Origin: Eledone cirrhosa
Taxonomy: Eukaryota
Length of the DNA stretch: 64,000 nt
Assembly: GCA_964016885.1 (NCBI GenBank)
Contig: OZ024743.1
Span: forward strand, 320,478,001-320,542,000
Direction of reading: 5' to 3'
The notes below the pieces were generated by a model. It had not been told where the DNA came from. It saw only the letters and a program-made list of their open reading frames with translations, and made no database searches. The position numbers were made by a program, and so were the translations under genes. Positions 1,906 to 64,000 of the stretch are shown here, piece by piece. Numbering within the stretch: the stretch's first letter is position 1; the number at the start of each line of letters is the position of its first letter.

Positions 1906-1927
1906 GAGATAGATAGATAGATAGATA
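1835..1927. repeat. (AGAT)n microsatellite, forming the 3' tail/target of Tx1 copy A
   Basis: Direct read. On the minus strand it follows AATAAAGAAAC at the 3' end of the element. Confidence 0.95.
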
Positions 1928-11997: not shown

Positions 11998-12009
11998 GAT
12001 AGATCATTT

Positions 12010-26650: not shown

Positions 26651-26679
26651 TTATTATTATTATTATTATTGTTGTTATT

Positions 26680-30260: not shown

Positions 30261-30261
30261 A

Positions 30262-30297
<36 letters not shown>

Positions 30298-30389
30298 TAT
30301 ATTGTTATTGTTATTCCTTGAATCTCAGTCATTGATGTTGGTTAACTGGAAAGTCCGTTGGATTGAATATCAAGCCACTACCTGCAGCC

Positions 30390-34351: not shown

Positions 34352-34997
34352 CCGTATTACTGTAGTGATGGTGCTGTAGCGGTGGCAGCAGCAGTGAAGG
34401 AGTCAAGGGGTGGTGGCGGCGGTGATGGGATAGTGGTGGTAATGATGGCCGTAGTGAGCGGTGGCGGTGAAGGTGAAAATGCTGTTGTGTTTAGTGTACA
34501 CAGATGATGGGGTGGGTGGTGTATCTAGTTTCTGGTGTTGGTGAGTTTCGCTGTCCTATATAGTGTAGCCAGAGGAGAGGAGGGGGGGGGGTTCTTCTTC
34601 TTCCATTTATAGCCATTTTATTTTTTTTTTTTTTGGATATACAGTGTACAATACAAAGTTGAATATTTGAATATTTGAGCCGTATTACTGTCGTGATGGT
34701 GCTGTAGCGGTGGCAGCAGCAGTGAAGGAGTCAAGGGGTGGTGGCGGCGGTGATGGGATAGTGGTGGTAATGATGGCCGTAGTGAGCGGTGGCGGTGAAG
34801 GTAAAAATGCTGTTGTGTTTAGTGTACACAGATGATGGGGTGGGTGGTGTATCTAGTTTCTGGTGTTGGTGAGTTTAGCTGTCCTATATAGTGTAGCCAG
34901 AGGAGAGGAGGGGGGGTTCTTCTTCTTCCATTTATAGCCATTTTTTTTTTGGATATACAGTGTACAATACAAAGTTGAATATTTGAATATTTGAGCC
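34352..34997. repeat. Tandem duplication (~328-bp period) in the Dong 5' UTR
   Basis: CCGTATTACTGT... starts at 34352 and again at 34680; both units end in GAATATTTGAGC. Confidence 0.9.
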
Positions 34998-35162
34998 TTA
35001 TAACAATATATTTTGGGTCCGAATTTTTTTTGGGCTGAAGCCGGGTGCTTTACGTAGCATTTGTACTAAGAGTTGTTATTTCACAAATGATTTAAATATG
35101 TTAAAAATTCAAAACTTACGGGAGCGATTTCATGACCTCCGTCACCTCGTGCGTCTTCTTCC

Positions 35163-35163
35163 C

Positions 35164-35234
<71 letters not shown>

Positions 35235-35245
35235 GTTATTACTAT
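35163..35245. repeat. (TTA)n tract; similar tracts separate every array member (~20827, 26650, 30262, 38180, 40677, 46442, 47160, 53219)
   Basis: Direct read. Confidence 0.95.
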
Positions 35246-35246
35246 T

Positions 35247-38180: not shown

Positions 38181-38203
38181 ATTATTATTATTATTATTAT
38201 TAA

Positions 38204-38237
<34 letters not shown>

Positions 38238-38239
38238 GT

Positions 38240-40692: not shown

Positions 40693-43600
40693 GGCCGCAC
40701 ATGTGTGAAGACAGTACAAATCTGCGGGGGAAAAGGTTCGTAACTTTAGACTGTTTTAAAGTGTCATTTTTTTGTATTTTCTTGTCGTTAACGAAACTTA
40801 AGGTACACATCTTGATTTAAAGAGAAGGATACCTCTCAATATTCGGGCTTTAAGCCCGAATATTCAGATTTATTTTTAAAAACTTCGAAAAAAAATCACT
40901 TCCCCACCAAAAGAAAATTATGGAAATGTTCGACCTTGAAACGGTAAACAACGTTCAGGTCAAAAGTTTAACGGCAGCCACTGTAGATTTCACCACGACT
41001 ACGACGACTACAGTCATGCCTGTCATCCACTCTACTGAATGTGAAGGCAAAACTCAACCTTCTGTGATAGCAGCAGTATCATCTGAAAACGACATCACCA
41101 CCACCACCACCACCACCACCACCACCACAACAACAACAACAACAACAACTCAGAGCAATAATGACAATAACACCGACAGCTTCAATGTAAACAAGGATGG
41201 CGGTGGCAACACCAATAACAACAGCAAGAATGACAACAACAACAATAAGAGCATCAGAAACACCACATTTGCTGCAGCAGCAGCAAAAACAAAGCGCTTA
41301 TTGAATATTGATATTGATATTAGCGATAAAGACGAACAGTTGGCCAAAGCGTGGAGGTTAATTAAACGGGAGAAGTCCTGGGCAAACCTGACCATCCCGG
41401 ACGAGGCAATAGCGGCCATGCAAAGGAGGACGGTGTTCTTTCGATGTATTTCGGTGCAGACACGAAAAGTGGAACTTGCGAGCCAAGCAGAGGTAGAGGC
41501 TGCTTTGGAGTACATCGGAAGTAACATAGAGTACAAAGCAAGAGGCAAACAATTCGGTACCATCTCGGTACTGTTCAAAACCGAGGCCCTCGCTATTAAG
41601 CACTCGGTGAACCCCTGCAGAACGGAACGCATTATCATGCATCCGTCCTATATGGGTAAAAGGACAGTGAAGGTACGCATTCCCAGCATCCCACCAGGAA
41701 TGAACATATGGTGGCTGCTGGGATGCGTAATCGAGGAGGGGACAGACACTACCCTCCTGGACATCAAAAGGACAGAGAGAGAGGACTGGTCCGGAATGGA
41801 TTTGGAGATTCTTCTCCAAATGAAACCGGAGGATATGAATAACATCCCGGATTTTGCCCGCCTGCAGGACGGGCCAACAATCCAACTAATGATTGACGGA
41901 AGAAGGCAACGCTGCTTCGTCTGCGGGGAAGCAACGCATCTTCAAGCCTTCTGCCCTCAGCGCAAAAATGCAGGGGGTCGCAAACCTCCTTTGTTGCCAA
42001 CACCAGTGTCAGCACGGAAAGCTGCACCACCAGCACCACCAAAACCAACATCAACAAAAACACGGACACCAACATCAAAATCAGCCGGATCACCACCAAC
42101 ACCAAAACCAATCCAAGGAGAAAACGAGGAAAGCTCTCCCACTCCCCCCCCCCAATTATACACATAGACAAAACAATAAACGCACACACAGACACAGAGA
42201 CACTCACAGACACAGACCCTTTGTCTGCCAGCAGCGAAGATGAAGGAAAACCCAAAAGTGCAAAAAAACAGCACTAACGCAAACACTTCCCCAATAACAT
42301 AATCACCAACAGCAACATCGAGACCACCTCCACAATCCCCGAAACGCAAACAACCTAAACAAACACAAGTACAAACATAGACATACCCGAAACAACACCA
42401 CCAAAACCATCGCCACCACCTTCACCAAAACGAAAACAAATAAAACTACACCAACAAAATGTTAAAAACTTCGTGCTTGTCAGAAGGGCCAACGATAAAC
42501 TGATGGCCCTCTTAGCGCGAAGCGAGGACATTCAAACAGAGGGGGAGATTTTTGACATGAGCACATTTTGCGTGCCAGAAGATTTGCTTCTGGTCCGAAT
42601 GTCACTCAATTCCTTCAAAGAAATTCGAGAGAGCTTTTCTCAAGACGTGGGAACCCCGAATGTGAAACCCACATCAAGACTTTTAAAGGGGTTCCCAAAA
42701 GAAATCCCACCAACCATGGAGGTCGAACTACCCGACCTTCACAAGACCCGGGAGGTAAGTAAACCTTCCCTCTCTCTCTCTTAGCTTACCAATATGGCCA
42801 TATTAAGAGTAGGAAGTTTAAATGTTCGCGGCCTGGGGTCACCCTGGAAGCAGGGTCGCCTGCTCAACGACCTCCGGTCGCTGGAAATGGATGTGATTGC
42901 CGTAAGCGAGACCAGAATTTCCTACACGCGCGCACTAGCCCCCATTTTCGACGACTATCAGATCTTCACATCGGTTAGCAGGCCGAGAATGGGGGATGGG
43001 GTGGCAGTGTTGTTAGGGAAAGGACTGGATCTCGAGGTAAGGTCGATCTTCCGGGACGCGGACGGTAAGTTGGTGGTCTTGGATGTGAGCAGTAGCGAAG
43101 GTGGTGCCTTTAGACTGCTGGCCGTCTACGCCCCTACAGGGGCCAGACGACCTGACTTCTTTAGGCGCCTGGATACCTTTCTGGGTACGTCTCGCCCTTT
43201 ACTGTTAGAAGGGGGACTGGAATGGCATCTTAGACGCACGCTGGGATTGTGTGGGAGTAGCCGATAGGAGCAGGGGGTGCAAAAGCCTCAAGCACCTACT
43301 CAGCCAGTTCCAAATGTCTGACAGGTATAGACTAGATTTCCCCAATGTGCCAGTATGGACATGGACCAACCGAATGGGGTCATCTAGATCGTATATAGAC
43401 AGGATCTTCATTAGGAAAATAGATAGAAATAGTGTGGGCTGTCCACTTTTTAAAACGGTCGCCTATTCAGATCACAAATGTTTGATCTGTACGGTCGACC
43501 TAAATAAAACGCGTAGGTTAGGACCGGGTTACTGGAAGCTGAACATGTCATTTCCGGCACGTAAGGCTTACAGGGACCGAGTCAACAATTTAGTTAAGCA

Positions 43601-46441
43601 AAAGTTGACAGGGGGGATCATCAACAACAGATGGTGGGAGGCTCTCAAAAGAGAGATTAGAGTAACTTCGATAGAGTTCAGCAAAGAACTAGCGTTAGAG
43701 AAAAATAGAAAGGTGGGGAGCTGGTAGATAAGTTAGACGAGCCTATTTGGCGTGCTAACGGCGAGAATGGCATTAGACCATTTCTTCAATGCCAGACACA
43801 AAGGTTGCATTTTCAGAGCTAAGGCGCGTGCGCTGAGAAACGAGGGAACTAAACCTGTTCGATGGGCCCGCGTGGCGGAGGCGCAGCGTGGTAATAAAAC
43901 CACAATTCGGTCTAGGCGGACCGAGACGGACACGAGATAAACGATTCCAAGCGGATGTGTGAGGCCTTTCGCCAGCACTTTGCTCGGTTGTTCAGGGAGA
44001 GTGGCGAGTCAGAGAGAGTAGCGGATTTCAGTCCCTACCTTGACGGCTTGCCGCGCATCTCGATGGTCGACGCTGAGCGCTGCGAAAGGCCGATTACTTC
44101 AGCCGAAATTCAGGACGCCCTTGTCGGCTGCATGAGGCGCAAGTCACCCGGTTTGGATGGCCTGCCCTACGAGCTTTACGTAAATATGCCAGACTTGTTC
44201 TCCGAACTCCTCAAAGCACTCTACTGCAACTGGCAGCAGAATGGGAGTATTCCCAGTTCTGTCAGCAGGGGAGTGGTGACGCTGATAAGGAAAGACGAGA
44301 ACAAGAGGGATACATTAGACAACTACTTCAGGCCCATAACTCTGCTCAACACAAAGTTTAAGATGTTGGTCAAGGAGATTGGCGCTTGTCGTGGAGGATT
44401 TGGTTGGGGAGGCGCAAACTTGCGCCATCCCAGCCAGGTCCATACACGACAATCTCCACCTCATGCGATACATCATAGAGAGGGTAGGGTGTAAACCTGG
44501 CTCCGGTGAGGCACTGATCAATTTAGATCAATCGAAAGCATTCGATAGGGTCGACCATCGATATCTGGAGTTTGTCCTCAAAGCAGCTGGCTTCGGCCCC
44601 GTCTTCAGAAGCTGGATCGTTGCAATGCACAGCGGCACCTGCTCGATGGTCAAAATGTATGGCCACTTCTCGGAACCGATTCAGGGCTCCCGATCGGTCC
44701 GTCAAGGGTGCCCTCTCTCTTCCCTTCTGTACGTATTGACTCTCGAGCCTTTACTGTGGAAGCTGGAGCTGTGGCAGGGCATCCCACTCGAACCGGGACG
44801 TGGAAAGGCGGTGTCGGCTTATGCGGACGACATCACCGTGATGGTGTCGAACACCTCAGAAATCGAGGTGGTCGGCACCTTATTGAAGGAATATGAAAGG
44901 TTGGCAGGAGCCAAACTTAACCCGGAAAAATCGGTGGGCTTGCAGCTCGGTACCTGGAGAGGCAAGCCCATGCCGTCCAACAGCGTCGTGGGGCGCTGGA
45001 CGGACGGACCGGTAAAGTTGCTCGGGGTTTGGTTCGGACCAGTCCTCCAGGTGGAAAAGAATTGGGACGAGGTAACGAGTAGAGTAGCCAGTCTCACCCA
45101 AAAATGGGCTGGGAGGAAGCTATCACTGAAAGGTCGCGCGGAGGTGGCGAATGCGTACATCGCGTCCGTCATCTACTACAGCCTAACCGTCGTGCCTTGC
45201 CCCCGTCCGCGCCTCGTCAAGTTGGAACGGCTCCTCTTCAAATTCTTGTGGAGGGAACAAGTTCCGTTGGTGAGGTGGTCCATCTGCTGCCAGCACCCTC
45301 TACGCGGAGGGCTGGGCATGCCGTGGCTAATGATGCGCAGACATGCGTTGAGGCTTCGACATCTCCAGATATTCTGCCTCAATGGTGAACAGGTGTGGTC
45401 GCCGTTTATCAGACGGGCCTTTCCGCAGCTCATTTCTTTGACTGAGCTGCAGTCCTGGGTCAAGAAGAGACCGAGACTGGGTGACTGGCACCTGGAATGT
45501 TGCCAGGCACTCACTGCTCTCTACCAAGCGGGCAATGCGATCAGTGGAACTTCCACTCTCGAGTTCTATAGAGGATTAGTGGTGTGCAAGTGCGATGACG
45601 CACTCGGAGAAGCTTTGGGCCTCGACGAAGTCGAACTGACCAGTCTGTACCGGAGGACTTTTGAGCCGAGGACGATGGATAATTTCCAGAAATCCCTCGC
45701 TTGGCAGTGCTACCGGGGGGCACTGCCGGTTCGGGATAAATTCTACAGGCACGGAAGTGCTGTCAGACGGACCTGCCCAAGATGCGCACGGAACGACGAA
45801 ACCGTTCTGCACGCACTTGTCCAATGTCCGTGCATTACTGACTTGTGGAGTTATGTCGAACAGCTACTGTCGCGTGTGGAACGAATCCGGCTATCGGCCG
45901 AGTCCATAGTGAAGATCGAGCCGCCACCTTCCTAAGGTCAGGAAGAGCAGGAAATTTTCCTCTGTCTGGTGGCAGTTGCGAAAGAGATTATATGATGGAC
46001 CAGGTTGAAAGGACTAAAGACAGACACTTTTCTCTTCGGCCAATTCCTCATCAACTTATTCAAGTTTCACCTGGAAAGGAGGGTGAGGGTGGAGAGAGAA
46101 GTGCTGCCCCCCAGTACATTTGCTAAAAGGTGGGTGAATGTGGCGAGAATGGCTCGTGTGAATGGGCCTACTCTGAGGAGAGGGGTGCTCTCCCTGGGTG
46201 CCCTAGAAGCGCAGGGTGGTTCAGGTTTGGTGGGGTACCCGAATCACCCCAGGGTCGTCCAACCCCTATCGGGGAATTTATTTTGTTATATTTATGCATA
46301 GTTCATTTTATATTTTTATATTTTCATTGTTAAATTAGTCTTGCCATTGTGCACTTTTACTCGACCTTATTGTAAACCCCCACTGTCCCTGTCTTTGTAT
46401 TGTCCCTTACATGTCGGCCCTTGTGGCTAATAAATGAAATC
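40693..46441 (+). mobile_element. Tx1-like LINE (copy D, distinct subfamily): ORF1 40920-42784, ORF2 42794-~46180, disrupted
   Basis: ORF1 CFVCGEATHLQAFC; APE GSLNVRGL; 518-aa RT segment 44379-45935; AATAAA followed by a (TTA) tail. Confidence 0.95.
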
Positions 46442-46450
46442 ATTATTATT

Positions 46451-47158
46451 GCCAGTTCGGGATAAACTCTACAGGCATGGAGGTGCCGTCAGCCGGGCAT
46501 GTCCGAGATGCGCGCAGGGCGACGAAACCGTCCTGCACGCACTCGTCCAGTGTCCGAGCATTGCTGACTTGTGGGTTTATGTCGAACACCTGCTGTCACG
46601 TGTAGGACGGATCCAGCTATCAGCTGAGTCCATCGTGAGGATTGCCCCACCCCCTTCCTTTAGCCTGGAAGGGCAGGCAGTTTTTATCTGTCTGGTGGCC
46701 ATGGCGAAAGAGATAGTATGGTGGACACGTTTGAAAGGGCTGAAGACGAGCACTTACCTCTTCGGTGATGCCCTGATTAACTTTTTCAAATTTCATTTGA
46801 AAAGGAAAATCAGGGTAGAGAGGGAAGTGCTCTCTTCCCAGCATTTTGTTGAAAGATGGGTGAGAGAAGCAAGTATGGCCCGAATGAATGGGCCTTCTCT
46901 GAGTATGTGTCTGTAAATTAAAGGTGGAAAACTGGGAGAGGGCACTTGCCCTGGTGGTCAGGGCCACTGTGGTCTTTTAATGGGCTTTCTCCACAAATGT
47001 CCCTTGGAAGTCTCCCCCCTATTGGGGAATTTTTCTTTGTTATTTTATTTCAACCTCTGTTTTTTTACACGCAGAAATGCCCATTTGTACCGTCCTGTAT
47101 TGTCCTGTACTGTCCTTAATGTCTACTTTATGTGAACCCTTGTGGTTAATAAAGAAAA

Positions 47159-47160
<2 letters not shown>
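46451..47160 (+). mobile_element. 5'-truncated Tx1 3' fragment (C/E subfamily) in the tail of copy D
   Basis: Nearly identical to 25939-26650; begins directly after ATTATTATT and ends in (TTA)n. Confidence 0.93.
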
Positions 47161-47210
<50 letters not shown>

Positions 47211-50200
47211 GAATGCCATAGTTGACGGAGGCTCGGTTCTGTAAGGTATAGTAATTTTTAACCGCTATAACAATTGTAAATTGTTTAAAACTTGAACCAA
47301 ATTGTAGATAAAAACACCCTCCTCTTCGTGAGAGGGGTCTTTCTGCTCGTTATTTGGCCCTTCGGGGTTAAATAACCGCTTATTGGGGTTTTGTACCCAA
47401 TATTCATTTTAAACCGTAAAAAAAAACATGGCTGCAAAAAAGAATTTTCACAAGTCACTCCGACACTTTCCGTCTTCTTCTTCCTCAATCGTCATTGCAT
47501 CAGAGAGAAGATTGTCTCTCTCCCTCACTTCTCTAAATGTGGTGTCGCCTCTTTCGCCAGCGATGCCATTAAAGAAAAGTATAGTTTCTGGAAGCTTTCA
47601 CCAAGAGAACGGGCATACCATGGAACATTTCTCCACGACGACGACGACGAAAAATGTGTGCGGTAAATACGGAAAGCCATTTCATTCGTCTGACGTCATG
47701 AAGAATAGCAGCAGCAACAGTGACAAGGAAAACACTAGTAGCAGCCGCAACAACATCAGCAGTAGCATAAACAACAACAGCAGCAGCAGCAACAGCAACT
47801 ACAACAGCAACAGCAGCACCAACAACAACCACAGCAACAGCGGCGGCGACGGTCGTAGTACCTGCAGCAACAACAAAAGTAACAGCAGCTCTGACGACGA
47901 CAACAACAACAACAAGAAAGAAAAACCAATCTCGTTTGCAGGTATCGCAAAGAACCTGGAAACCATCCTTATAACAACTGAGAAATTACAGGAAGCAAAG
48001 AAGATGGTGATGAAAACCGGACACCGAGCAATCTGCAAGGCAGCCGAAAAACTTTTCGAAACCCAACAGCACTATACGGTCACGTACCGTACAGTAAACA
48101 CAAAATCACGTAGGGTTGAAAGAGCCACAGACGCTCAAATACAAAAAGCCTTAGGGTCTGTGTGGCAGCGGAAAACGTATATCACCCGAGGCAAGAAATA
48201 TGGCACCGTGGACGTACTTTTTGCCACAGCCCAGGAGGCAAAGGCTCAATCCCTAGTGACCCTAAGGAGCGAGGAAATGGTGTTGGTGCCCTCCTACTGC
48301 GGGCAAAAATTGCGAGGGTCAAACTGACCCCCCCCCCCGGATGGCCCCTTCTTCGCTGGCCGCATCTGTCCTCGTCGGAATCGAGGACAAAACAACTGTA
48401 CTGCAAGTACAGAAAAAAGTACGAGAAGATTGGGTCGGCACCTCCATTGACATGTTAATTCAAACCAGCCATCGAAGCTATCCCGGATGTGATAGACTTC
48501 GATAACGGCACTCAACTTCCCATAAGTGTTGAGGGCAAACGCCCGAAATGTTTTCGCTGTGGGTCGAAGACTCACCTCAGGGCCTTCTGCAATGAGAAGA
48601 CCCTCGAGAAAGGAGAAAACCCCCTCCTTCCGAAACCGGCTCCACTGCTACCAGCAACAGGACATGCGGCATGCAGGAAGGATAGGTCCGTGGTACCCAT
48701 ACCCACGCCACGGAAATCAAGAACAGCAGCAGTAGTGGAAGTATTAACAACAACAACAGTAATAGCAACTGCAGCTGGCAACAGAGACTCCACTGCAATC
48801 ATCACCAACAAGAACAAGTGAAAGAGTGGAGCTGGTACCCCTCCCCGACCTCACAGAATCGGACATAGAGTGTAAGGTGGGAGAGGGATGGCAAAAGGTC
48901 GCAAGAAGGCACAAACGCAGAGGCAGCGCATCGTCGCCTTCGAAAAGGGAGTGAAGAAATAAAAAAAGGGTAAAGGCTACTGCAAAGAGACTTACAGCAG
49001 CGACACCACCAGCACCATCACCACCCACACTAGCACCACCATCACCACCCACACTAGCACCACCATCACCACCGGCGGCAACCCCACCACCAACAATAAC
49101 AACAACACCTTCAACACCACCACCACAAGCACAAACATCGCAAACACAACAATAAAACACACACACCCAGTAACAACGACAAGAAAATAGCAGAATCACA
49201 CCCCACCCCCAGAAAAAGAAATGCACAGCAATAAATACACACAACAAGAAACTAATGACTTACATAATTGAACACACAGACATTTCACAGCACGACTACA
49301 TAATACCAGCACCAATCAAAACACCAACGAACATAAGACTGGTAAGAATATCACAGAAACAATCCACAAACATTAAAATAAGGAGGCACACTCAACCGGA
49401 GAGTATATTCGGATATACTCACAGAAGAGCCGACGACCAGCCGAAGGGACGATTCAACGGTGCCTTCACCAGACGATCAAGTGAAAAGGGATGGAGAAAC
49501 CATCCTTCCTCTACGAGAAGTAAGGTAAGTGGTCTATCCCATCTTTTCCACTCCATTTCAACATGACCTCACTCAGAATAGGCAGCATAAATGCGCGTGG
49601 CTTGGGGTCGTCATGGAAGCAGGGCCACCTGCTCAACGACCTCAGGTCACTAAACATAGATGTAGTGGCCATCAGCGAAACCAGAACCTCCGAAGCACGG
49701 GCCTCCGCACCGATCTGCGGCGGCTAAGATGTGTACGCATCTCCCAGCCATCCTAGATCGGGGGGTGGAGCTACTGTGCTTTTTCGGAGAGGTTGGATCT
49801 CGCCATACGGGCCATCTTCCTGGACCCAGAAGGTAGTATGTTGGTGGTGCTGGACGTGACCAGTGCAGAAGAGCAAGCTTTCAGCCTAGTGGCCGTCAAT
49901 GCCCCGACAGAAGCAGGACGGCCTGTTTTCTTCCGGCATCTGGAGACATTTCTAACTATTTGGAGTTAGTGGGCGACTGGAACAGGATCTTAGATGCACG
50001 CTGGCAGTGTGTGGGATTAGCGGATAGGGGAGGAGGGTGCAAGAGCCTCATCAAGCTGCTCAGGCGTTTTGAATTGTTTGACAGGTACCGATTGGATTTC
50101 CCGAATATGCCAATGTGGACTTGGACAAACCGTATCGAGTAATCCAGATCATATATAGATAGAGTATTTTGTAGGGAAATAGATAGGTCTAGCATAGGCG

Positions 50201-53200
50201 GTCCACAATTCAAGATAGTCAGCTACACGGACGACAAATTCGTAATCTGTGTGCTTGACTTAGATAGGCTTCATAGACGAGGACCCGGCTACTGGAAGCT
50301 AAACGCCTCCTTACCAGCGCGCAAGGCCTACAGAGACCGGATTAGCGAACTAGTTAAGCGGGCGTTGACGGGGCCATCGCCAACAAAAAGTGGTGGTTTG
50401 CTCTTAAAAGAGCGAGTAGAATAGAGTCCATTGGGTTTAGTAAGGCATTAGCAATGGAGAAAAATAGAGCAGAGGGAGAACTAGTTAGAAAATTAGACGA
50501 GGCGCTTAGCAAAGGCATCTCGCCCGAGGTACTAGCGACGAAATTGGCCTTTGACATATTCTTCAATGCAAAGCACGAAGGCTGCGTTGTCAGAGCTAAG
50601 GTGCGTGCTCTCAGACACGAGGGGACAAAAGCCGTTCAATGGGCCCGAGTGTTGGATGCGCATCGTGGCAACAAAGCCACGATCCGGTCTTTGGTGGACC
50701 ATGACGGGCGCATGCTACTCGATCCCAGGCAAATGTGCGAAGCTTTTCAGCGATATTTCGCACAGCTGTTCGGGGGCAGCGGCGGGCCGGAACGAGGGAT
50801 GGACTTTAGTGTCTACCTCGACGGACTGCCGCGGCTCTCGGCCACTGAGGCAGAGCGTTGCGAAAAGCCGATAACAGCCGCTGAAGTACGGGAGGCAATG
50901 ACTGGCTGCACAAGCGGTAAATGCCTGATTTGGATGGTCTGCCCTATGAACTTTACGTACAGATGCCAGACTTGTTCGGAGGCCTCTTGGCGGACGTCTA
51001 CTGCAACTGGCAACAGAACGGGAGAATTCCCACCTCTGTGAGCCGAGGAGCTGTGGCGCTGCTGAGGAAGGATCCGAACAACGGGGATAACAGATAATTT
51101 CAGGCCCATAACTCTGCTAAACACAGAGTTCAAGATTTTGGCCAAAGTGCTAGCAAAGAGGTTGGCGCTTGTCGTTGGTGGTCTGGTGGGAGAGGCACAG
51201 ACATGCGCCATTCCCGACAGATCCATCCACGACAACCTCCACCTCATGCGATACATCGTAGAGAGGGTAGCTAGGGAACCTGGCACGGGTGGGTCCTTGA
51301 TCAATTTAGATCAGTCGAAAGCTTTCGATAGTGTCGACCATCGTTACCTAGCGGCAGTCCTGAGGGCGGCTGGCTTTCGGCCCGTCTTCAGAGGCTGGAT
51401 CGCTGCCATGCACAGCGATATCTGCTCTGTGGTGAGAGTGAACGGTCACCTTTCGGAACCGTTCAACTACATGCGCTCGGTCCGCCAACGATGTCCCCTC
51501 TCGTCCCTATTGTACGTATTGACTCTCGAGCCATTACTGCACAAACTGGAGATGTTGAGGGGGTCCCGCGCGAACTAGGATGCGGAAGATCCGTGTCAGC
51601 ATATGCCGACGATGTCACCGTAGTGGTGTCGAACGCCAAACACATCGAGGCGATCGGCACTACACTAAGAGAATACGAAGCGGTGACAGGAGCAATGATC
51701 AACCAGGAAAAGTCAGTGGGCCTGCAGCTCGGCACATGGAGAGGCAGGTCCATGCCGTCCAACAGCGTGGTCGGGCGCTGGACGGACGGACCGGTTAAAT
51801 TGCTAGGGATCTGGTTCGGTCCAGACATCCAGACGGACAAAAGCTGGGACGAGGTGTGGCAGGGTGGCTTCTGTCACCCAGAAATGGGCCGAGAGGAAGC
51901 TATCTCTGAAAAGTCGAGCTGAGGTGGCTAACGCATACATCGCGTCCGTCATCTACTACCGCCTGACCGTCGTACCTTGTCCTAAGCCCCGCCTGACTGC
52001 GCTGGAGCGTTTGCTCTTTCGCTTCTTGTGGAAGGGACGCGCTCCGATGGTCAGGCGGTCCATCTGCTGTCAACACCCGCTACGTGGAGGGCTGGGCATG
52101 CCGTGGCTATTGATGCGCAGACACGCGCTCAGGCTACGACATCTCCACCTCTTCCTCGACGGTGATCAGGTGTGGTCGCCGTTTGCTAGACGCGTCTTTC
52201 CCCAGCTCGTCTCCTTGACGGAGCTGCAGTCCTGGGTCAAGCGAAGACCAAGAGGGATCGCTTGGAGATTGGAATGTCTTCAGGCGCTCACATCCCTCGA
52301 CCAATCGGGCAATGTGATCGGTGGAAACTCCACCTCGGCGTTCTATATAGGATTAGTGGAGGGGAAGAGCGACGACGTACTTGGGGAAACTCTAGTCTTC
52401 GACGAAAATTAACTAGCTAATCTCTTCGGAAGAACTTTCGGGCCGGGGCCTATGGACAACTTCCAGAAATCCCTGGCTTGGCAGTGCTACCGAGGAGCTT
52501 TTCCATTTCGGGATAAACGCTACAGATGTGGAGGTGCCGTCAGCCGGGCATGTCCGAGATGCGCGCAGGGCTACTAAACCGTCCTGCATACACTCGTCCA
52601 GTGTCCGAGCATTGCTGACTCGTGGGTTTATGTCGAACACCTGCTGTCGCGTGTAGGGCGGATCCGGCTATCAGCTGAGTCCATCAGGAGGATTGCCCCG
52701 CCCTCCTCCTTTAGCCGGGAAGGGCAGGCAGTTTTTATCTGTCTGGTGGCCATGGCGAAAGAGATAGTATGGTGGACACGTTTGAAAGGGCTGAATACGA
52801 GCACTTACCTCTTCGGTGATGCCCTGATTAACTTTTTCAAATTTCATTTGAAAAGTATAATCAGGGTAGAGAGGGAAGTGCTTTCTTCCCAGCACTTTGT
52901 TGAAAGATGGGTTGAGAGAAGCAAGAATGGCCCGAGTGAATGGGCCTACTCTGAGTATGTGTCTGTAAATTAAAGGTGGAAAACTGGGAGAGGGCACTTG
53001 CCCTGGTGGTCAGGGTCACTGTGGCCTTTTAATGGGCTTTCTCCACAAATGTCCCTTGGAAGACTCCCCCCTATTGGGGAATTTTTAATTGTTTTTTTTC
53101 TGTTACATCCTCTGTTTTTTTTTTTACACGCAGACATGCCCATTTGTACCGTCCTGTCTTGTCCTGTACTGTCCTTAATGTCTACTTTATGTAAACCCTT

Positions 53201-53226: not shown

Positions 53227-53645
53227 TCTTCGAAATGCTTTTAATTAAGTATACAGTGTATTGCAAAATGCACTATATATACATTCATATATATATCGCT
53301 ATTTCAAAGCACCAATTCTAATTTTCAATTTCTGCTTGACCGGCAACCAATCTGTATAATCAGTTCCTGATTATTACTAGAATTCTATAAGAATCAAACA
53401 GTCATGATTTTCAGCAAACAGGTGGAGTACTTAGCTTTGATAAGTACCAAAAAGTACGAGACAGAGCTCTGTCAGCTTTATCTCCCCTTGTTTGCTGAAA
53501 ATTTAAAGTAAGTGAGACTGTCACTACTCTAAAACAATAGCGTAAGGTCTTCGAAATGCTTTTAATTAAGCATACATTGGATTGCAAAATACACTATATA
53601 TACATTCATATATATATATCGCCATTCCAGAGCACCAATTCTAAT
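53227..53645 (+). mobile_element. Retrozyme-like 1.3-mer: 321-bp unit with HHR and ~96-bp terminal direct repeat
   Basis: 53227-53322 is repeated at 53548-53645; HHR in between; followed by (TA)n. Confidence 0.7.
53407..53502 (+). ncRNA. Type I hammerhead with extended stem I, U3:A8 core, GAGA in place of GAAA
   Basis: AGCU-UUGAUAA-GUAC CAAAAA GUAC-GAGA-CAGAGCUCUG-UC-AGCU (53433-53477), enclosed by UUUUCAGCAAACAGG / CCUUGUUUGCUGAAAA. Confidence 0.8.
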
Positions 53646-53797: not shown

Positions 53798-53834
<37 letters not shown>

Positions 53835-53945
53835 TAGCCATTTGACACACATCCCTGCTAACCATTATCACAACATCGAACACCTTACTACTACTACTAC
53901 TACACACACACACACACACATATTTGTTGTGAAAGAGTCATTTCT

Positions 53946-54193
53946 CAGTCTTGGCGCAAAATCAATTTTTTATTCACATGACCTCTACCGACCAATCAAA
54001 ATTGTTTTGACCACAAGAATTTTTGCAAACACCAAGTAGCGCTGGAGCCACTTTTTTAACATAAAAACAGTCTTGGCGCAAAATCAATTTTTTACATTCA
54101 CATGACCTCTACCGACCAATCAAAATTGTTTTGACCACAAGAATTTTTGCAACACAAAAGTAGCGCTGGGGCCACTTTTTTAACATAAAAACA
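53946..54193 (+). repeat. 122-bp tandem module x2 in the 5' pLTR of PLE-B
   Basis: Units start at 53946 and 54068. Confidence 0.92.
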
Positions 54194-54427
54194 GGTAGAA
54201 TTCCAAAAACTAATCAGATCAGAGCAAACAACACGGACACTCTATCTCAAAATTATTTTTGAAAAGCATTTAGAAATGCGCAACCGGTAAAAACTTAAAA
54301 ACTTAAAACCACAACTGAATACTAACCCATACAATTACTAATACTCTTTTATTCCTAATTAAACCATTTTTCAACTGTGAACAATTTGTCAGCATTTTCT
54401 ATTCCGTTTACCAATATATAATAACTT

Positions 54428-55792
54428 GTGTGTTACACCTCTATTCTTTTAACTATCATATCCTCACACGAGATACAGAAAAGGCCAACAAAAACGGATA
54501 CACCCCTCATCAACACAAATGGAGTGATCCTACAGGAACTCAAGAAAATCAACACCAACCTATCTTTGCTGGTCGACAAACTTGACTCCACAAATAAGGA
54601 AACCGCCACCGGATACAAACCCTCCGAAATCGGCGACAAACTCCAAAACCTTTGCGATACTATCCAAACTATGTTCACTACTACCAACCCAGGAAAAATC
54701 AACGAAGAACCATGTTAGATTGATTCATACAAAATGAAAATTCGAACAATTCCAAAATGCAACAAACCCCTCAGAGACTGAAAGTTCTCATTCTGGAAGA
54801 TGATACAAAATGACAACAAAGCAGCGATATATGAAAAATGGCTTTACTCAACCCCTCTAACTCTCCCCCGTAAACTACAAATAATGTCCATTCCAAATGA
54901 ACCCGAACCTCAAAGACACCTTAGGGAAAGAATTGCATTGGAAAAAATGAAGACAGAAATTGAACTTCTTAAACTGAGGGCCCAGACAAATGAGGAAAAA
55001 ATCAAAACCATCGATGAAGAGATCCTCCTGGAAATCAACAACAAAACTGAAGGCCCCAAGGTAGAGAAGAACTCCAAATTATGGAAAGGGGACTGCAACA
55101 GAGAAGAACTGAAATCCCTTCAACGCTGGGAAAAAAGTGCTGCTTGGTTCCTACACTAGGAATCGACTTTTCAAACGAATTACACCTCCAATAACCCGTT
55201 CATAAAAATAGGAAAACCCATAACTGAACCGCACAACAACTTCTCAAACCCCCAAGCCACTAACAAACGAAGAAGGAAGCACCACACCGAAGATGAACTT
55301 GCCAACATCGCTACCATAATAAGGAACAAAAACCCAAGAAATCATCTCCCCCAGAATGACATTTACAACTTTCCCCCTTCAAGGAGACACCATACCAAAT
55401 CACTCAACTACTACGCGGATGCCTCATCGTCAAACATAGGGAAAAGATACCACCACCTTGATAGATGTAACAACTTCCCCGCTTCAAGGGGACAGCAAGG
55501 TAATTACCATTTTCTCAACTCTCGCTTCCACAATACACAACAAACCCACACCACACGATACAACCAACAACGTAGGCCACTTAAATCACCACAATACAAC
55601 ATGGCACATAGAAACACACACCCATACTCGCAGTACAGGAATACCCTATTCAATCTACAACCACCAACCCGAACCACGTTTTACAACAACAAGGAATATA
55701 ACAAACACAGGAGACCACTTAACATCAGCAGATAACCCCTCTACCCCAACCATCTTTTAGACACAGCACACAGATACAGGCAAACAAAATAA
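54428..55792 (+). pseudogene. Putative ORF1 of PLE-B (coiled-coil-like plus hydrophilic low-complexity tail), one frame with four internal stops
   Basis: Manual translation: stops at 54716, 54779, 55157 and 55733, no frameshift needed. IYEKWLYSTPLTLPRKLQIMSIPNEPEPQ matches PLE-A IYETWLNSTPIILPKKLQIKPIPNEPENQ. Start codon is uncertain. Confidence 0.65.
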
Positions 55793-55929
55793 CACAAGAC
55801 AGGGAGGAGAAACCGATTGTAATAAAAATTATCAATCTTACTAGTGCAGAACCAACACCCAACCTTATCAACTTACTCTCCAAAGGTCTTAAATTCACAC
55901 CGACCCCACTACGTCCTAACTACTATGAA

Positions 55930-58077
55930 ATGAAGGAAGACATCACAGACTTCTGTAGAAAGTTACGACTTAGTGAACAACTATTCGACCAGTACAATGA
56001 GGATGAATCATTAGCCAGAAATAGAAGCAATTACACCCCTTCAAAAGGTAGAAATAAAATCCTGGACGAATTCTGTGAACACATCACAAACTTCCCTTAC
56101 CAACACTTGCACAGACAAAAACACAAGCCAAACCTCAACAAGAAAGAATGGGAAGAATTAAATAGATTAAAAACCGACAGAACCATTACAATTAAAGAGG
56201 CTGATAAAGGGAGTACAGTAGTCCTAATGGAGACAGAATTATATATCAACTTAGCGCTCTCCACTTTGGAAAACGAAACATACTACGAAAAGGCTGAACA
56301 CTACAATCAACAGAAAATTATGAGAAACCTAAAAACTCTAATCAACCAATACAAAGAAGGACTCACTAACAAGGAATTCAGCTTCATCACAGACTTCACA
56401 AGTAAATCCAGCCTTTTCTACGGTATCCCTAAAGTACATAAAAGCGAATTAATAAGTAAGGCATGCAAGGAAGCCACAGACATAGTCATCAATGTCCCCT
56501 CACCCAATGATATCAAATTAAGACCTATAATAGCAGGCCCAGCTTGCGAAACTCACCGCCTTAGCAACTTCATTGATACCCTTCTCAAACCCTTTCTCAA
56601 ACACATCAAAAGCTATATAAGGGACGACCTAGATATGCTCAATCACCTCCCTTATATGCCACTTTCTGAACAAACCCTACTAGTGACGTTCGATGTAGTC
56701 AACCTATACTCCAACATCCCCCACAACCTAGGAATAGAAGCTATCCAATTCTGGCTGGATAATTTCCACAATGAACTCCCACAACGCATCAAAAAAGAAT
56801 TCGTGATAGAGGGACTCAAATTTATCTTGGAGAACAATTACTTCGTTTTCAATACCAAACCCTACAGGCAGAAATCTGGGACCGCTATGGGAACGAAAAC
56901 AGCCCCCACTTATGCCAACCTAGTCATGGGATACCTGGAAATCACCCTCTACACTAAAGTCCTAAACAAATTTGGAAACACCCTCCACTTACACATTGAA
57001 AGGAACTGGAAGCGATATCTAGATGACTGCTTCATCCTTTGGCACGAAAATATTGAAAAACTTAAAGAATTTCACACCCTTATAGATGGCCTCAACACGA
57101 ATATTAACTTCACGATGGAATACAGCCATCAACAACTCCCCTTCCTCGACATCCTCATTAAGATCCATAACAAAAAAATAGAAACAGACATAAACTACAA
57201 GCCCACAGACTCCAAGCAATATCTCCCTTTCAACTCTTGCCACCCTAGACACGTTAAAATTAATATTCCCTACAACTTATCCAAGAGAATCTGTACTATA
57301 ATCTCCAATAAAAACACCTGCTACTTACGGCTACAAGAACTAAAGGACACACTCATAGGCAGGGACTACCCTGCATCACTAATTGACAATGGAATCCAAC
57401 GTGCCCTAAAACTCAGTACCCAGGACCTTAGACAACCTAAAGTAAATCAACCGAAACTAAAAGCTCTTCCATACATCTCCACACACAACCCCCTCAACAA
57501 TGAGGCCTTTGACACCATCCTCCAGAACATCCCTGTGTTGAAAAAGGACCATAGAATGAACCAAATCCTACGAACACACGATATCATAAAGAGCAAAAGA
57601 CAATCCAAGTCAATGAAAAACATCCTAACACATGCCAAAGTACTGCCAACCACAACAACGAAACCCACAGTAAAAAAATGCGATAGACCCAACTGTGGCA
57701 TTTGCATCAACCTAATAGAGGGTTCGGAATTCTATTTCAAAGAAGGACAACGTTTTATAGTAAAACACAATTTCACATGTGCATCGGAAAATCTAATATA
57801 TGTATTAACTTGCTCAGGTTGTCGAGAACAATACATAGGTCAGACCAAAAACAGCATCCGCCAACACATGACTGTCCATAGATCCCAAATTAAAATACGG
57901 GAATACAGGAAAATACCACTGAGTGAAAACATTGATACCTGTGCCGCCCCAAATCATCCCAACTTCAGAATCTTTCCCCTCTACAAATTTAAAGTTAATG
58001 CCACCCACACCCAGCGCATCAGCAAGGAATCTTACTTCATTAACAAATACGGACCCCGTCTAAACACTTCTCCCTAA
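55930..58077 (+). CDS. PLE reverse transcriptase + Cys linker + GIY-YIG endonuclease (frame open from 55702)
   Basis: LSKGLKFTPTP upstream of the first ATG, KEADKG, YGIPKVHK, LRPIIA, FDVVNLYSNIP, GTAMGT, RYLDD, CDRPNCGIC, LIY..YIGQT. The GIY-YIG Arg seen in PLE-A (RNRM) reads RQHM here. Confidence 0.92.
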   Translation: MKEDITDFCRKLRLSEQLFDQYNEDESLARNRSNYTPSKGRNKILDEFCEHITNFPYQHLHRQKHKPNLNKKEWEELNRLKTDRTITIKEADKGSTVVLMETELYINLALSTLENETYYEKAEHYNQQKIMRNLKTLINQYKEGLTNKEFSFITDFTSKSSLFYGIPKVHKSELISKACKEATDIVINVPSPNDIKLRPIIAGPACETHRLSNFIDTLLKPFLKHIKSYIRDDLDMLNHLPYMPLSEQTLLVTFDVVNLYSNIPHNLGIEAIQFWLDNFHNELPQRIKKEFVIEGLKFILENNYFVFNTKPYRQKSGTAMGTKTAPTYANLVMGYLEITLYTKVLNKFGNTLHLHIERNWKRYLDDCFILWHENIEKLKEFHTLIDGLNTNINFTMEYSHQQLPFLDILIKIHNKKIETDINYKPTDSKQYLPFNSCHPRHVKINIPYNLSKRICTIISNKNTCYLRLQELKDTLIGRDYPASLIDNGIQRALKLSTQDLRQPKVNQPKLKALPYISTHNPLNNEAFDTILQNIPVLKKDHRMNQILRTHDIIKSKRQSKSMKNILTHAKVLPTTTTKPTVKKCDRPNCGICINLIEGSEFYFKEGQRFIVKHNFTCASENLIYVLTCSGCREQYIGQTKNSIRQHMTVHRSQIKIREYRKIPLSENIDTCAAPNHPNFRIFPLYKFKVNATHTQRISKESYFINKYGPRLNTSP

Positions 58078-58451: not shown

Positions 58452-58778
58452 CGTACATTAACATACAAAGAGACTTATACACACACACGCACACACACAC
58501 ACACACACACTTCTCCGTATAAGACAAAAGCTGAAAAACATCTTTTGACATGCTATAATACCCCCACTGCTTACAGACACATTCCTACTGATCATCCCTG
58601 CTACCACGAATTACTCTGCTATACACACACACACACACACACACAAACACACACACTACTTATCTTAATAGCCATTTGACACACATCCCTGCTAACCATT
58701 ATCACAACATCAACCACCTTACTACTACTACTACACACACACACACACACACACATTTGTTGTGAAAGAGTCATTTCT

Positions 58779-59146
58779 CAGTCTTGGCGCAAAATCAATT
58801 TTTTATTCACATGACCTCTACCGACTAATCAAAATTGTTTTGACCACAAGAATTTTTGCAAACACCAAGTAGCGCTGGTACCACTTTTTTAACATAAAAA
58901 CAGTCTTGGCGCAAAATCAATTTTTTATTCACATGACCTCTACCAACCAATCAAAATTGTTTTGACCACAAGAATTTTTGCAAACACCAAGTAGCGCTGG
59001 TACCACTTTTTTAACATAAAAACAGTCTTGGCGCAAAATCAATGTTTTATTCACATGAACTCTACCGACCAATCAAAATTGTTTTGACCACAAGAATTTT
59101 TGCAACACCAAAGTAGCGCTGGAGCCACTTTTTTAACATAAAAACA
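58779..59146 (+). repeat. 122-bp tandem module x3 in the 3' pLTR of PLE-B
   Basis: Units start at 58779, 58901 and 59023. Confidence 0.92.
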
Positions 59147-59362
59147 GGTAGAATCCCAAAACTAATCAGATCAGAGCAAACAACACGGACTCTCTATCTC
59201 AAAATTATTTTTGAAAAGCATTTAGAAATTCGCAACCGGTAAAAACTTAAAAACTTAAAACTACAACTGAATACTAACCCATACAATTACTAATACTCTT
59301 TTATTCCTAATTAAACCATTTTTCAACTGTGAACAATTTGTCAGCATTTTCTATTCCGTTCA

Positions 59363-59427
<65 letters not shown>

Positions 59428-60873: not shown

Positions 60874-61135
60874 AAACAATGAAATTTACACAAAATACGA
60901 GTAATTCATAGTAAAACTCATTATTTTACGATCGTTTCTGGGGGGTAGTTCTCCGTATGTTCATTCTATTAGTGATCTATGTAAAATATATAACAAATTT
61001 GATAATTTGTAATATATTTTACATAGATCACTAAAAGGAATGAACAGACGGAGAACTACCCCCCAGAAGCGATCGTAAGATAATGAGTTTTACTATGAAT
61101 TACCCGTATTTTGTTTAATTTCATTGTTTTCACTA
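60868..61135. repeat. Long near-perfect palindrome (arms ~132 bp, 4-nt loop) next to (TA)n
   Basis: 60868-60999 versus 61004-61135. Confidence 0.9.
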
Positions 61136-61322: not shown

Positions 61323-61527
61323 TATACCATGTATGTATGTATTGATGATATAAATATATATATATATATATATATAGCAATTAAAATACTAGAGTGTGTT
61401 GGAGTTAAACACCCTCTTCATATTATAGAAATGACAGTATAAGATATAGCTCAATGTAATTAAACAGAGCCGAAGAATTATAAAAAATAAACCAAAGAAG
61501 CGTTCAATACATCAAAAGTCTTTATTA

Positions 61528-61565
61528 GCCAACAATGTTTCGTCCTATTAAGGACTCATCAGGGC
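61528..61565 (-). ncRNA. Minimal type I hammerhead ribozyme, canonical core
   Basis: GCC-CUGAUGA-GUCCU UAAU AGGAC-GAAA-CAUUG-UU-GGC, followed by UAAUAAA. Confidence 0.88.
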
Positions 61566-63187
61566 AAGTAAAGCTACAAGAAGCACTATCGGCCAATACA
61601 AGCCCAAAACTCAGAAGAATATGGAGTATACATCTATTAAAGCTTTGGAAAAATATCAAGGAAAAGTTGGGTAAGATTAAGAGTGAGCAGTTACAAACAT
61701 AGATATAGACCAAATAGCAAGGAAGTGATTAACATGTTCAACGCACATTGCAAATATTGTATAATGCAAAAACTTGAAACACAAATGGTAATTTAATGCG
61801 AGAATTACAGTACGATATAGAATATAATATAATATAATATATGGTGATAATAAAAAGCTTAATATATGTATATATGTATATCTATACATATACACATAAG
61901 TAAAAACACAAACTAACACTTATTAAGTATTTAAATATATATATATATATATATTGTTTACAGTATAATATAATAAAGATAAAAATAAGAATAAAAATAA
62001 AATATAATATATAATTCCCTGTCAGTGTGCATGAACAATATAAAAACATTATAATAACATTATAATAACAATATTATAATATATAGGCATCAAAAGATAT
62101 ACAAAATTACATCATACATATAATTCAAGTTTAACAAGTAGTATAAAGTTTTACACAGGGTAAGAAAAAAATCATATAGAACTAAATTGTGTTGAAAAAA
62201 TTGTGTTGAAAAATATCTATACCATTGTAACAAATACACGGAGGTCAAGTCATTTTACATTGGCATAAATATTACCAAAATATCACAAAATATTACAAAA
62301 TATAACAGAACAGTACCTCAAATAACAGACATATATTAAAATCTATAATACGATTACATAAAAATGATATGATATAACAACGTTAATATCAAATAGCAAA
62401 CAGAGTCTAAGGAAATGCTTAATATATATATTTACGTGGTTGACATACACAGACATATATTAATGAAATTACATGGATCAGATAGACAGCGTGTGGTAGT
62501 AAAAAAATAAATAAAATAAACCGAAGCTCGAAAAACAAAAACAAGTATATTTACTTAGGTATCACAAGCGGTTAAGTAAAAGAAAAAAAGATAGAAATGT
62601 AAACTGGAGAATTGACTAGAAAAACTTTTTAAATTAATTAATATTAAAAGTATTTAAAATACATATTTAGTCACTTCAAAATTGGCTAGTGTTTAAGTCA
62701 TCAAAATCGTACAGGTTTAAGATATCTCAATAGAATTATCAAGAATAGAGTAAAATATGCTCCGTTCAGTCGAATAACGTTATCAAATAAAAGGACTCTA
62801 AATAGAACTATGGTAGACCAATGGGAACAGAAAGAAGAGAGGTTATGGAGGATAGGAAGGAGCATAAAAGTAAAATCAATATATTATATAATATCATAAA
62901 AAGGTGCATAAAGGTGAAATTAATATATAGTATAATAGAAGGGGCGGATATGAAGTGTGTAGAGGAGGAGGTTCATTAGTTGAATGAGACTCCAAACAAA
63001 GTATTTAATAAGATATAAACTCATAAGGTGTTAGTAGTGAAACTATAATAATGCTTAAGAAGAGAGATAGGGTATGGTAGCCAAAAGACTATGGAAACTA
63101 AAATCGAAAAGCTGTAAAAAACTAATAATAATGATGATAATGGTAATCAAAATGAACCTAAACAAAAAAGATAAGGAAATATAGCAG

Positions 63188-64000
63188 CTAATGGATACGA
63201 TTTAAACTACCAGTACTTTTAGGTCTATAATAGAAGAAAGAATTAGAAATGGCATGGGGGCAGGAAGAAAATATCTCAGACTTTCTATTAAGCAAAACTT
63301 CCCACCAGAAAATTATAGAGTGGGTCTTTAGGATACAGAGATTACAGAATTTAGTGTGTGTTGATAGGTTATTAGAGCGTGCTACTATACGCCAATTAAG
63401 GCTATATGGCATACCAGCCCCTTTAAGATCTCAGATATGGTGTGCTAAAGAAGTAGAGTTCTTAAACTTAACATGCTTAAAATTAGAGATATGAGAATTA
63501 AACCTAGTTTTAAAAGTATTAGATGTGGAGCCTATATATGTGCTATTAGAAGAATTAGTCTTAACTTCACCAGCATAAACAATGTTCCTAGAGAGGCAGT
63601 GACCATTTAAAGGGTAGTTAATACTTACTCTACAGTTACACTTCCGGGTGCTATTGACCGGCTGAATGAGTGATGCATCACTCCTAGGGTTATTATAAGA
63701 ATAGATCTGCTCAGGTGGTAAGGCATTAATGGATCTATCAAGACTAGTAGTACGCAAAGAGGAGTAGCTGTCCCTAAGTTTCCTATTGTTAGTGCTAGCT
63801 AAATGAGAACTAATATTAGGGGTGGTAGAGAATGATAGTTTAATTACATTTTTATTAAAAATACCATGGTATTTATTAGAAGGAGGGAAATGTTTCTCTA
63901 AGATAGAAAAGAAAGACCTAGGCATGTTAGTTAATACTTTATGATCATAAGGCGGGTTAAAATAAGTATTGAGTCTCCTCATATGTCTATCCTTACCAAC
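63188..64000 (-). mobile_element. Penelope-like element (tentatively Nematis-like) linker and GIY-YIG, disrupted; continues off the window; 3' UTR may extend to the HHR at 61528
   Basis: YFNPPY..LEKHFP..IFNKNVIKLSFSTTPN..CNCR..IVY..YIGSTSNTFKTRFNSH..CNLC..LLNRKSEIFSSCPH. Confidence 0.85.

Follow-up and report, generated by a model that had tools for sequence, protein, structure and literature searches.

A U3-A8 minimal hammerhead motif in each pLTR of two Penelope-like elements, preceded by a tandem module that is likely a multimerised promoter cassette

The window, by which we mean the whole 64,000-nt stretch of DNA that was analysed, is AT-rich, microsatellite-rich animal sequence dense in retroelements, and two of the Penelope-like elements (PLEs) within it are considered here: PLE-B on the plus strand and the more decayed PLE-A on the minus strand at about 6780-12000, whose RT genes share about 64% DNA identity. 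PLE-B begins in a (TA)n tract with its 5' pLTR (53832-54420, plus strand), a 5'-truncated tandem copy that is 96-97% alike to the 3' pLTR-matching region at 58666-59372 (plus strand), itself terminating in (TA)n. Beyond the end of the 5' pLTR lies an optional 36-nt tail (54421-54456, plus strand), followed on the same strand by an upstream reading frame (54500-55810), stop-interrupted in three-frame translation, and by the gene for an RT with a C-terminal GIY-YIG endonuclease and a CX4CXXC linker (55822-58077), which is open for 715 aa from the ATG at 55930. Within this protein RVT_1 matches positions 196-382 with E 7.5e-7, and positions 622-711 match GIY-YIG with E 4.5e-4, both just under the Pfam cut-off. 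The 5' pLTR of PLE-A (11040-11997, minus strand) opens with the final 40 endonuclease codons and is 79% alike to 6779-7726, and the PLE-A RT-endonuclease gene (7605-9827, minus strand) is interrupted by frameshifts and stops.

The order of domains, RT and then GIY-YIG, is that of the C-terminal EN+ PLEs, and the partial-tandem pLTRs come with two possible ends 36 nt apart, which agrees with the tails of 30-40 bp described in PMC8557442. The CX4CXXC linker of PLE-B, found also in 15 of the 15 best relatives listed, falls within the CX2-5CXXC linker between RT and EN that defines the Neptune/Nematis type in the same paper. This linker places PLE-A and PLE-B with the Neptune or Nematis type, the two clades being taken together here. 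In a quick tree free of named references, both elements group with four unnamed proteins (SH-aLRT 100), and hammerhead-bearing loci surround their branch. Those relatives that have names, at 41-47% identity, are oyster proteins and others filed under bivalve symbionts, and the viral collection searched contained neither a relative of the elements nor the tandem module described below. The host may be a mollusc, perhaps a cephalopod. We also note that in PLE-A (about 9870, minus strand) the upstream frame meets the RT frame at a TTTTTTA run, which recurs in the related loci L044, L045, L048 and L051, its PLE-B counterpart at the T-rich end of the upstream frame (about 55765, plus strand) having one base changed. 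The run is a candidate -1 frameshift site, and such a site is mentioned for some PLEs in PMC8557442.

All four pLTRs contain a minimal hammerhead motif whose core is the U3-A8 covariant UUGAAAA, with CCGG as its palindromic loop and UA at the site of cleavage. In PLE-B the 5' motif lies at 54253-54295 on the plus strand (core at 54259-54265, 6-bp stem II, predicted cut after 54289; 27.3 bits, E about 0.001) and the 3' motif at 59205-59247 on the same strand (predicted cut after 59241; 20.3 bits, E about 0.04). The two PLE-A motifs, both on the minus strand and both scoring 20.6 bits, lie at 11096-11137 in the 5' pLTR (3-bp stem II, predicted cut after 11102) and, with the same core and stems, at 6835-6876 in the 3' pLTR (predicted cut after 6841). 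For the first core box, which is CUGANGA or its covariant UUGANAA, UUGAAAA is found in all four pLTRs. The second box is an intact GAAA in both PLE-A copies; in both PLE-B copies it is replaced by GCAA (A13C, at 54281 in the 5' copy), so that we class the PLE-B motif as hammerhead-derived rather than as an intact ribozyme. Stems I and II, the palindromic loop 3 and a UH site are present throughout, with one stem II mismatch in the PLE-B 3' copy; the 3-bp stem I reads CUU/AAG in PLE-A and UUU/AAA in PLE-B.

In their type I order, the lack of a true helix III, the palindromic loop 3, the short helix I, the U-rich 5' and AU-rich 3' flanks, the position on the sense strand of the pLTR and the U3-A8 core, these motifs resemble the metazoan PLE minimal hammerheads of PMC4209133, among them the U3-A8 hammerhead of Schistosoma Cercyon. 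The same paper reports Neptune elements with hammerheads, and the U3-A8 core is a natural, active variant according to PMC3088659. Differences concern the unpaired base between A9 and 10.1, a consensus feature in supplement file 2 of PMC4209133 that is absent in the four window copies and in six of 11 aligned relatives (it is missing in L044, L048, L049, L056, L059 and L076), the G-U pair with which stem II opens in PLE-A, and the A13C of PLE-B.

The first-pass annotation had stated that these pLTRs lack visible hammerheads, and had itself named a covariance search as the test that could refute it. Rfam found no hammerhead in the four pLTRs, its matches in the window being weak ones to two other elements only, and a first descriptor that scored U3-A8 as two mismatches missed the motifs. 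A descriptor admitting U3-A8, with a background of 0.05 matches per shuffled window (20 block shuffles), recovered the two PLE-A motifs under strict settings and the PLE-B 5' motif once a single GAAA base was relaxed, and missed the PLE-B 3' motif. The covariance search was then made with a model, R1, built from 11 related hammerheads with no window sequence, only one of whose 11 training rows is U3-A8 and whose E-values are rough. Over the whole window, unfiltered, it gave 12 matches up to E 5, with the four pLTR sites among the best seven (20-27 bits) and hammerhead motifs of neighbouring elements as the other three; there was no match inside any of the nine module copies. The claimed absence of hammerheads is thereby overturned.

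The single-copy stretch 3' of the last module, which holds the motif, is the only part of the two families that BLAST joins (76-78% over about 75 nt). Single copies of the motif fold no better than shuffles (z 0.36 and 0.56), and their stems are short and A-U rich. ViennaRNA dimer folding paired the CCGG palindromes in PLE-B but produced a complete hammerhead fold for neither PLE-A nor PLE-B, and it is not counted here as evidence. Two other readings of the same letters were set aside, namely TTTGAA as a CHR cell-cycle element, since it is the ribozyme core, and CCG/GTAAA as a splice donor, since it is loop 3 with the cleavage site, although it might serve a double role.

For comparison we used related elements at 119 loci. 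Prokaryote assemblies supplied 43 of these and metagenomes 76, and in both cases the loci most likely represent host DNA. L001-L043, together with P0026, P0034, P0044, P0061, P0079, P0081 and P0111, are animal-type PLEs in prokaryote assemblies that appear there as named bacterial proteins, and host contamination of symbiont bins is their likely origin. The flanks of the relatives carry minimal hammerheads immediately 5' of a T-rich tract. With the palindromic loop demanded, the U3-A8-admitting descriptor found a motif in 39 of the 119 loci, two of these matches (L019, on the minus strand, and L045, inside an ORF) probably being due to chance. In a nine-locus subset, drawn afterwards by at least 40% identity, a match reaching the endonuclease end and a 3' flank no shorter than 150 nt, six loci were positive by descriptor and one more by model, and in L045 and L047 a motif was recognised by eye only. 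Counted across all 119 loci, 25 motifs are U3-A8, many of them from one metagenome, and 32 are C3-G8 with GAAA.

Of 14 distinct aligned rows, 10 have C-G at positions 3 and 8 and four have U-A, and no row is mixed. In the joint hammerhead alignment 47 cells change on both sides, a value that none of 500 shuffles reached; as the relatives were chosen by a pairing descriptor, these covariation counts are partly circular. Rfam run on 20 related loci returned nothing up to E 2, although many of them hold clear minimal hammerheads. Variant-core minimal hammerheads are invisible to Rfam here, so that the absence of a hammerhead from a PLE should be claimed only on the strength of a descriptor in which U3-A8 is allowed. 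A GCAA match in seven loci of one assembly, with a weak stem II and lying about 2 kb before the RT match, was treated as chance; L012, the one of these loci that was compared with itself, showed no pLTR-like direct repeat.

Changes at A13 cripple hammerheads, and with A13C in both of its copies the PLE-B motif may be inactive. We think it likely that this motif is dead or nearly so, and the PLE-A motif may cut weakly. The consensus core given in PMC3088659 is not matched by A13C, and the open literature searched, including the accessible portions of PMC12192606 and PMC11014351, yielded no statement on A13 variants. In the reads no substitution at 54281 stands among the best 40 of 167 differences (each at about 80% or more in some run), from which it follows only that no other single letter dominates there. 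The consensus of loose ends in X1 (8 contigs) has GAAA after a PLE-B-like stem, without CCGG. According to PMC4209133 minimal hammerheads pair as two copies through their palindrome and cut weakly in vitro, and in the window elements too the motifs would act as dimers by way of CCGG. Cleavage was dispensable for insertion of the anole element in vitro (PMC11167929), which fits a decayed PLE-B core. The need for cleavage by PLE hammerheads is treated as an open question in PMC8557442 and PMC11167929, and PLE-A with GAAA and PLE-B with GCAA offer a natural pair for asking whether these hammerheads must cut.

Upstream of the hammerhead motif every pLTR carries the tandem module, nine copies in all, and the copy numbers first read from the sequence were confirmed. 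Tandem Repeats Finder gives two modules in the PLE-B 5' pLTR (53946-54194, plus strand; period 124, 2.0 copies) and three in the 3' pLTR (58779-59147, plus strand; period 122, 3.0 copies), and PLE-A has two per pLTR on the minus strand, at 11183-11409 in the 5' pLTR, both with the exact E2F consensus, and at 6922-7156 in the 3' pLTR, where the first module (7150-7048) lacks the TGGCGC block. In the PLE-B 3' modules the blocks are TTGGCGCAAAA, TTATTCACATGAC, ACCRACCAAT, GCCACTTTTTT and CATAAAA. Identity is 89-97% within the B modules, 66-88% within the A modules and 50-61% between families, the last being concentrated in four short blocks; the proposal of common short blocks in both families holds, save for that one PLE-A module out of four.

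The central block, TTATTCACRTGAC with at most one mismatch, occurs eight times against 0.16 expected, and none of 100 shuffles reached eight. A profile of the nine modules matches its own nine sites, as it must by construction, and no other site in the window below E 6. The spacing of the first three blocks is constant across families (19-21 and 15 nt), the next spacer is variable, and the distance from the last module to the hammerhead motif is 63-80 nt in all four pLTRs. We also observed that most module copies, in PLE-A and PLE-B alike, have ATCAA at two places (alignment A1, columns 21-27 and 47-60). The first of the two is inverted in PLE-A and direct in PLE-B, as would be more natural for a DNA site than for a stem in RNA. 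The PLE-A 3' UTR has a second tandem duplication, older and about 119 bp long (11907-11811 and 11788-11693, minus strand, and also in the 7638-7532 region; 74-79% alike); it is unrelated to the module and is sited farther upstream.

The 119 related but more distant loci gave no match to the module or its blocks (best E 0.69 in 708 kb). Loose ends in X7 and X1 point to a further, close family whose module starts with the same kind of opening block, TTTGGCGCGAAA and ATTGGCGCGAAA, with the exact E2F consensus. The head-to-tail module joint itself recurs in 291 raw reads (about 43 starts) of X15 and in three contigs of X1.

The names E-box, M-box, CRE, CCAAT, TATA and initiator are used in what follows for motifs that we take to be of these kinds. 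The likeness of the blocks to E2F, E-box and CCAAT sites, noted in the first-pass annotation, proves to be divided between the families: exact TTTSSCGC stands in three of the four PLE-A modules but in none of the five PLE-B modules, TCACRTGA in five of five B and two of four A modules, and CCAAT in four of five B modules but in none of the four from A. For E2F the consensus TTTSSCGC was taken from 10.1101/2020.11.07.372946; the DHFR-type E2F word was not found in the open literature, and PMC4176359, in its accessible part, does not spell out a consensus. The label "cell-cycle" would derive from E2F-like sites that are exact in PLE-A only.

Related elements were scanned for promoter-like words at the same place, with one motif each from 33 loci that have a located hammerhead, and again with the 11 loci of one metagenome collapsed into one (n=23). 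A TATA-like word 36-46 nt 5' of the core occurs in 13 of 33 loci, a figure that none of 1000 random rotations equalled in its best window, and in seven of 23 after collapsing (1 of 1000 rotations). An initiator-like TCANT at 7-17 nt occurs in 14 of 33 (3 of 1000 rotations) and in eight of 23 (22 of 1000). The clustering of the strict initiator TCAKTY in relatives vanishes on collapsing (4 of 23; 494 of 1000 rotations), and none of the four window pLTRs has this word. The relatives show no clustering of CCAAT either (233 and 948 of 1000). Among 12 close loci TGACGT stands upstream of the hammerhead 19 times, in five loci, against 1.2 expected, the motif having been picked after the flanks were viewed, and the E2F motif in none of the 12.

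The TATA-like box at 36-46 nt 5' of the core was seen in L005, L046, L047, L054, L058, L062 and the L092-L114 group, several of which have CCAAT farther upstream, and short tandem repeats stand upstream of the hammerhead in L001, L044 and L046. With a TATA-like box at about -40 a start near -10 would be expected, so that the fixed distance from box to hammerhead in the relatives predicts where transcription begins. In PLE-A and PLE-B no TATA-like box stands at 36-46 nt, and CATAAAA is found instead 57 and 74-75 nt 5' of the core; all four window pLTRs have TCA with its A at -10 to the core. Judged by these motifs, the TATA-like box and the clustered TGACGT, the relatives would keep a promoter at the position of the module, and this suggests a general layout of promoter and then ribozyme in related elements.

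The interpretation that we favour is that each pLTR has a U3-A8 minimal hammerhead and, upstream of it, a module that is likely a multimerised Pol II promoter cassette of E2F-like, E-box and CCAAT sites, with a start about 10 nt 5' of the core. A multimerised promoter was one of the two branches offered by the first-pass annotation, and by its position and motif content it is the better supported of the two. The blocks would be DNA sites for host factors (E2F-like, bHLH E-box/M-box and, in PLE-B, CCAAT). Insertion as partial tandems in (TA)n, which is described in PMC8557442, places the 3' end of one copy before the next, and a module carried in the 3' end of the element RNA would come to stand ahead of the following tandem unit, in the manner of U3 in a true LTR. 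The module would then lie 50-70 nt and more upstream of the start predicted at -10, where it would likely recruit host factors, and the start site itself would be the TCA whose A is 10 nt before the core in both families. Presumably the transcript starts just 5' of the hammerhead, runs through the gene and the 3' modules, and passes the second hammerhead to one of the two ends 36 nt apart. Unequal exchange or jumps between templates may alter the number of module copies.

Three features are already known, namely the type of element, its U3-A8 core and the presence of a hammerhead in the pLTR. Neither a tandem E2F/E-box cassette nor an A13C family was found in the open papers searched, and the same holds for a fixed distance from TATA to hammerhead in Neptune-type elements. 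In retroviruses and LTR retrotransposons the U3 enhancer repeats likewise form a tandem cassette of factor sites, variable in number, that passes from the 3' end of the RNA to a place upstream of the next start. A pLTR differs from a true LTR in arising by tandem insertion and not by strand transfer, and integrase, primer site and true LTR are all lacking. The Neptune/Nematis PLEs with C-terminal GIY-YIG, as far as they are presented in PMC8557442, agree with the window elements in the RT followed by GIY-YIG, the CX2-5CXXC linker, the DKG motif, the partial-tandem pLTRs, the 36-nt tail, the insertion in (TA)n and the pLTR hammerhead, and differ from them in that the window pLTRs hold a 2-3-fold cassette of about 110-122 bp 5' of the hammerhead.

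In Drosophila virilis the Penelope promoter, dissected by experiment (PMC2377424), is similarly in the pLTR together with the start site; it is internal, TATA-less and downstream of the start, in contrast to the candidate sites of the window, which lie upstream of the predicted one. Closer in this respect is Pen2a of Adineta vaga (PMC3846280), for which a TATA and initiator arrangement with sites upstream of the start is proposed. Non-LTR retrozymes (10.64898/2026.07.22.740005) are also tandem units related to pLTRs, but there every unit has a hammerhead, whereas the module unit has none and the pLTR hammerhead is single.

Reads bear on the ends and on the abundance of the pLTRs. The ends of PLE-B fall into two (TA)n-joined classes, behind 54420 and 54456, with 782 and 727 reads in X15 and seen also in X4. 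In X15 the pLTR bins are roughly a hundred-fold deeper than the 5' UTR and ORF (about 345-3000 against 6-37), a step that is also present in X1 and is not clearly so in X7; X15 being a reduced-representation library, and contig depth not being copy number, many pLTR-only copies are hinted at rather than counted. Such pLTR-only copies seem to outnumber full elements. A bolder reading, which we put forward as speculation and consider clearly less probable than not, is that Neptune-type pLTRs work like the U3 of a true LTR, with a Pol II start about 10 nt 5' of the hammerhead and a ribozyme that removes the initial 40 nt, cap included, from the transcript to which it belongs, that in this lineage the multimerised E2F/E-box cassette ties jumping to dividing cells, and that PLE-B, its hammerhead broken in the core (U3-A8 with A13C), has spread until pLTR-only copies are in great excess. 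If core-broken PLE-B did spread in this way, cleavage would not be needed for spread in vivo.

Other explanations of the module have to be weighed against a multimerised promoter. It might be an unstructured RNA element of the 3' end, for example a set of sites bound by proteins, a signal at the U tract for pausing or termination, or one by which the RT recognises its template. This would agree with the presence of the module in the 3' UTR of every copy, its element sense being kept in both families, with the far greater depth of the pLTR in X15, as though short module-holding copies spread well, and with the GCCAC + T5-6 block, which has no firm factor assignment. The best-kept blocks are nevertheless short, CpG-centred and near-palindromic (GGCGC, CACRTG), like DNA sites, and the corresponding stretch in the relatives has a TATA-like box and factor-like motifs of other kinds; moreover, the RNA requirement for insertion of the anole element is the start of the ORF and not the pLTR (PMC11167929). 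We regard an unstructured RNA element as unlikely.

Alternatively, promoter function might reside in a single copy of the cassette, the tandem copies being left behind, with neutral effect, when the RT jumps between templates. The differing copy number at the two ends of one element, two and three, would be expected on such terms, as would the loss of the first block from one PLE-A module, the modest likeness of the PLE-A modules (66-88%) and the unrelated duplication of about 119 bp farther upstream in PLE-A. Yet there are at least two copies in all four pLTRs of both families, the joint recurs in other samples, and the diverged PLE-A copies retain most blocks while their spacers drift, so that this view, too, seems improbable, marginally the more so.

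The remaining branch of the first-pass annotation was an unrecognised structured or self-cleaving RNA that replaces, or perhaps backs up, the hammerhead. The pairing of the module ends on which it drew can be drawn, with 91% of 45 cells pairing, and a 7-bp stem can be folded around the E-box block in the PLE-A modules; in addition, the core change in PLE-B may inactivate the hammerhead there. But the fourth pair of the end stem is broken in three of nine copies, the stem has no compensatory change and 500 of 500 shuffles score as high. The covariation across families that was called for did not appear: RNAalifold on the nine aligned modules found 0 consensus pairs and there were 0 double changes, at the low power of nine rows from two families. 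Folding z-scores of six sense modules run from -1.06 to 0.94, the hairpins of the A and B modules are not in register, and no Rfam family matches the module. With hammerhead motifs found in all four pLTRs and a module without structure signal, the branch of an RNA replacing the hammerhead falls, and we consider a new structured RNA very unlikely. The claim of a Neptune element that lacks the ribozyme and has a new catalytic RNA is not borne out, and most of the surprise goes with it. Least credible of all is that each module is a small Pol III unit with an A-box-like start, a B-box-like ATTCGAG and a T-tract terminator, for, judged by the usual A-box and B-box consensus, the T5-6 end of the module and the ATTCGAG before the T tract in two PLE-A modules are offset by the internal T4-T6 runs of PLE-B, which would stop Pol III early, and by the missing B-box-like word there.

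The window holds several further elements. A third Penelope-like element has a consensus-core hammerhead at 61525-61568 on the minus strand (32.8 bits with R1 and a weak Rfam HH9 match) and a GIY-YIG fragment at 63431-63982 on the same strand, preceded by a CxC linker, and the combination of linker and fragment resembles the Hydra clade of PMC8557442. Just upstream of PLE-B, a 321-bp repeat is present in about 1.3 units at 53227-53645 on the plus strand (53227-53322 and 53548-53645 being 91% alike), with a decayed U3-A8 hammerhead at 53431-53479 that has a 10-nt palindromic loop; the repeat looks like a retrozyme-type remnant. Minimal hammerhead motifs also lie at 17075-17117 (plus strand) and 17406-17449 (minus strand), one of them U3-A8 and the other C3-G8, and a short PLE RT fragment lies at 15370-15576. 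Two short elements at 60883-61121 and 18067-18341 have long inverted arms (84 nt at 93% and 104 nt at 95%), are the source of sub-threshold Rfam microRNA matches, and are probably MITEs. Frames of non-LTR retrotransposons cluster at 600-5450, 21200-26300, 26600-40500 and 40900-53200, and 26650-40500 holds four near-identical non-LTR copies, with one open frame of 1130 aa at 30390-33782.
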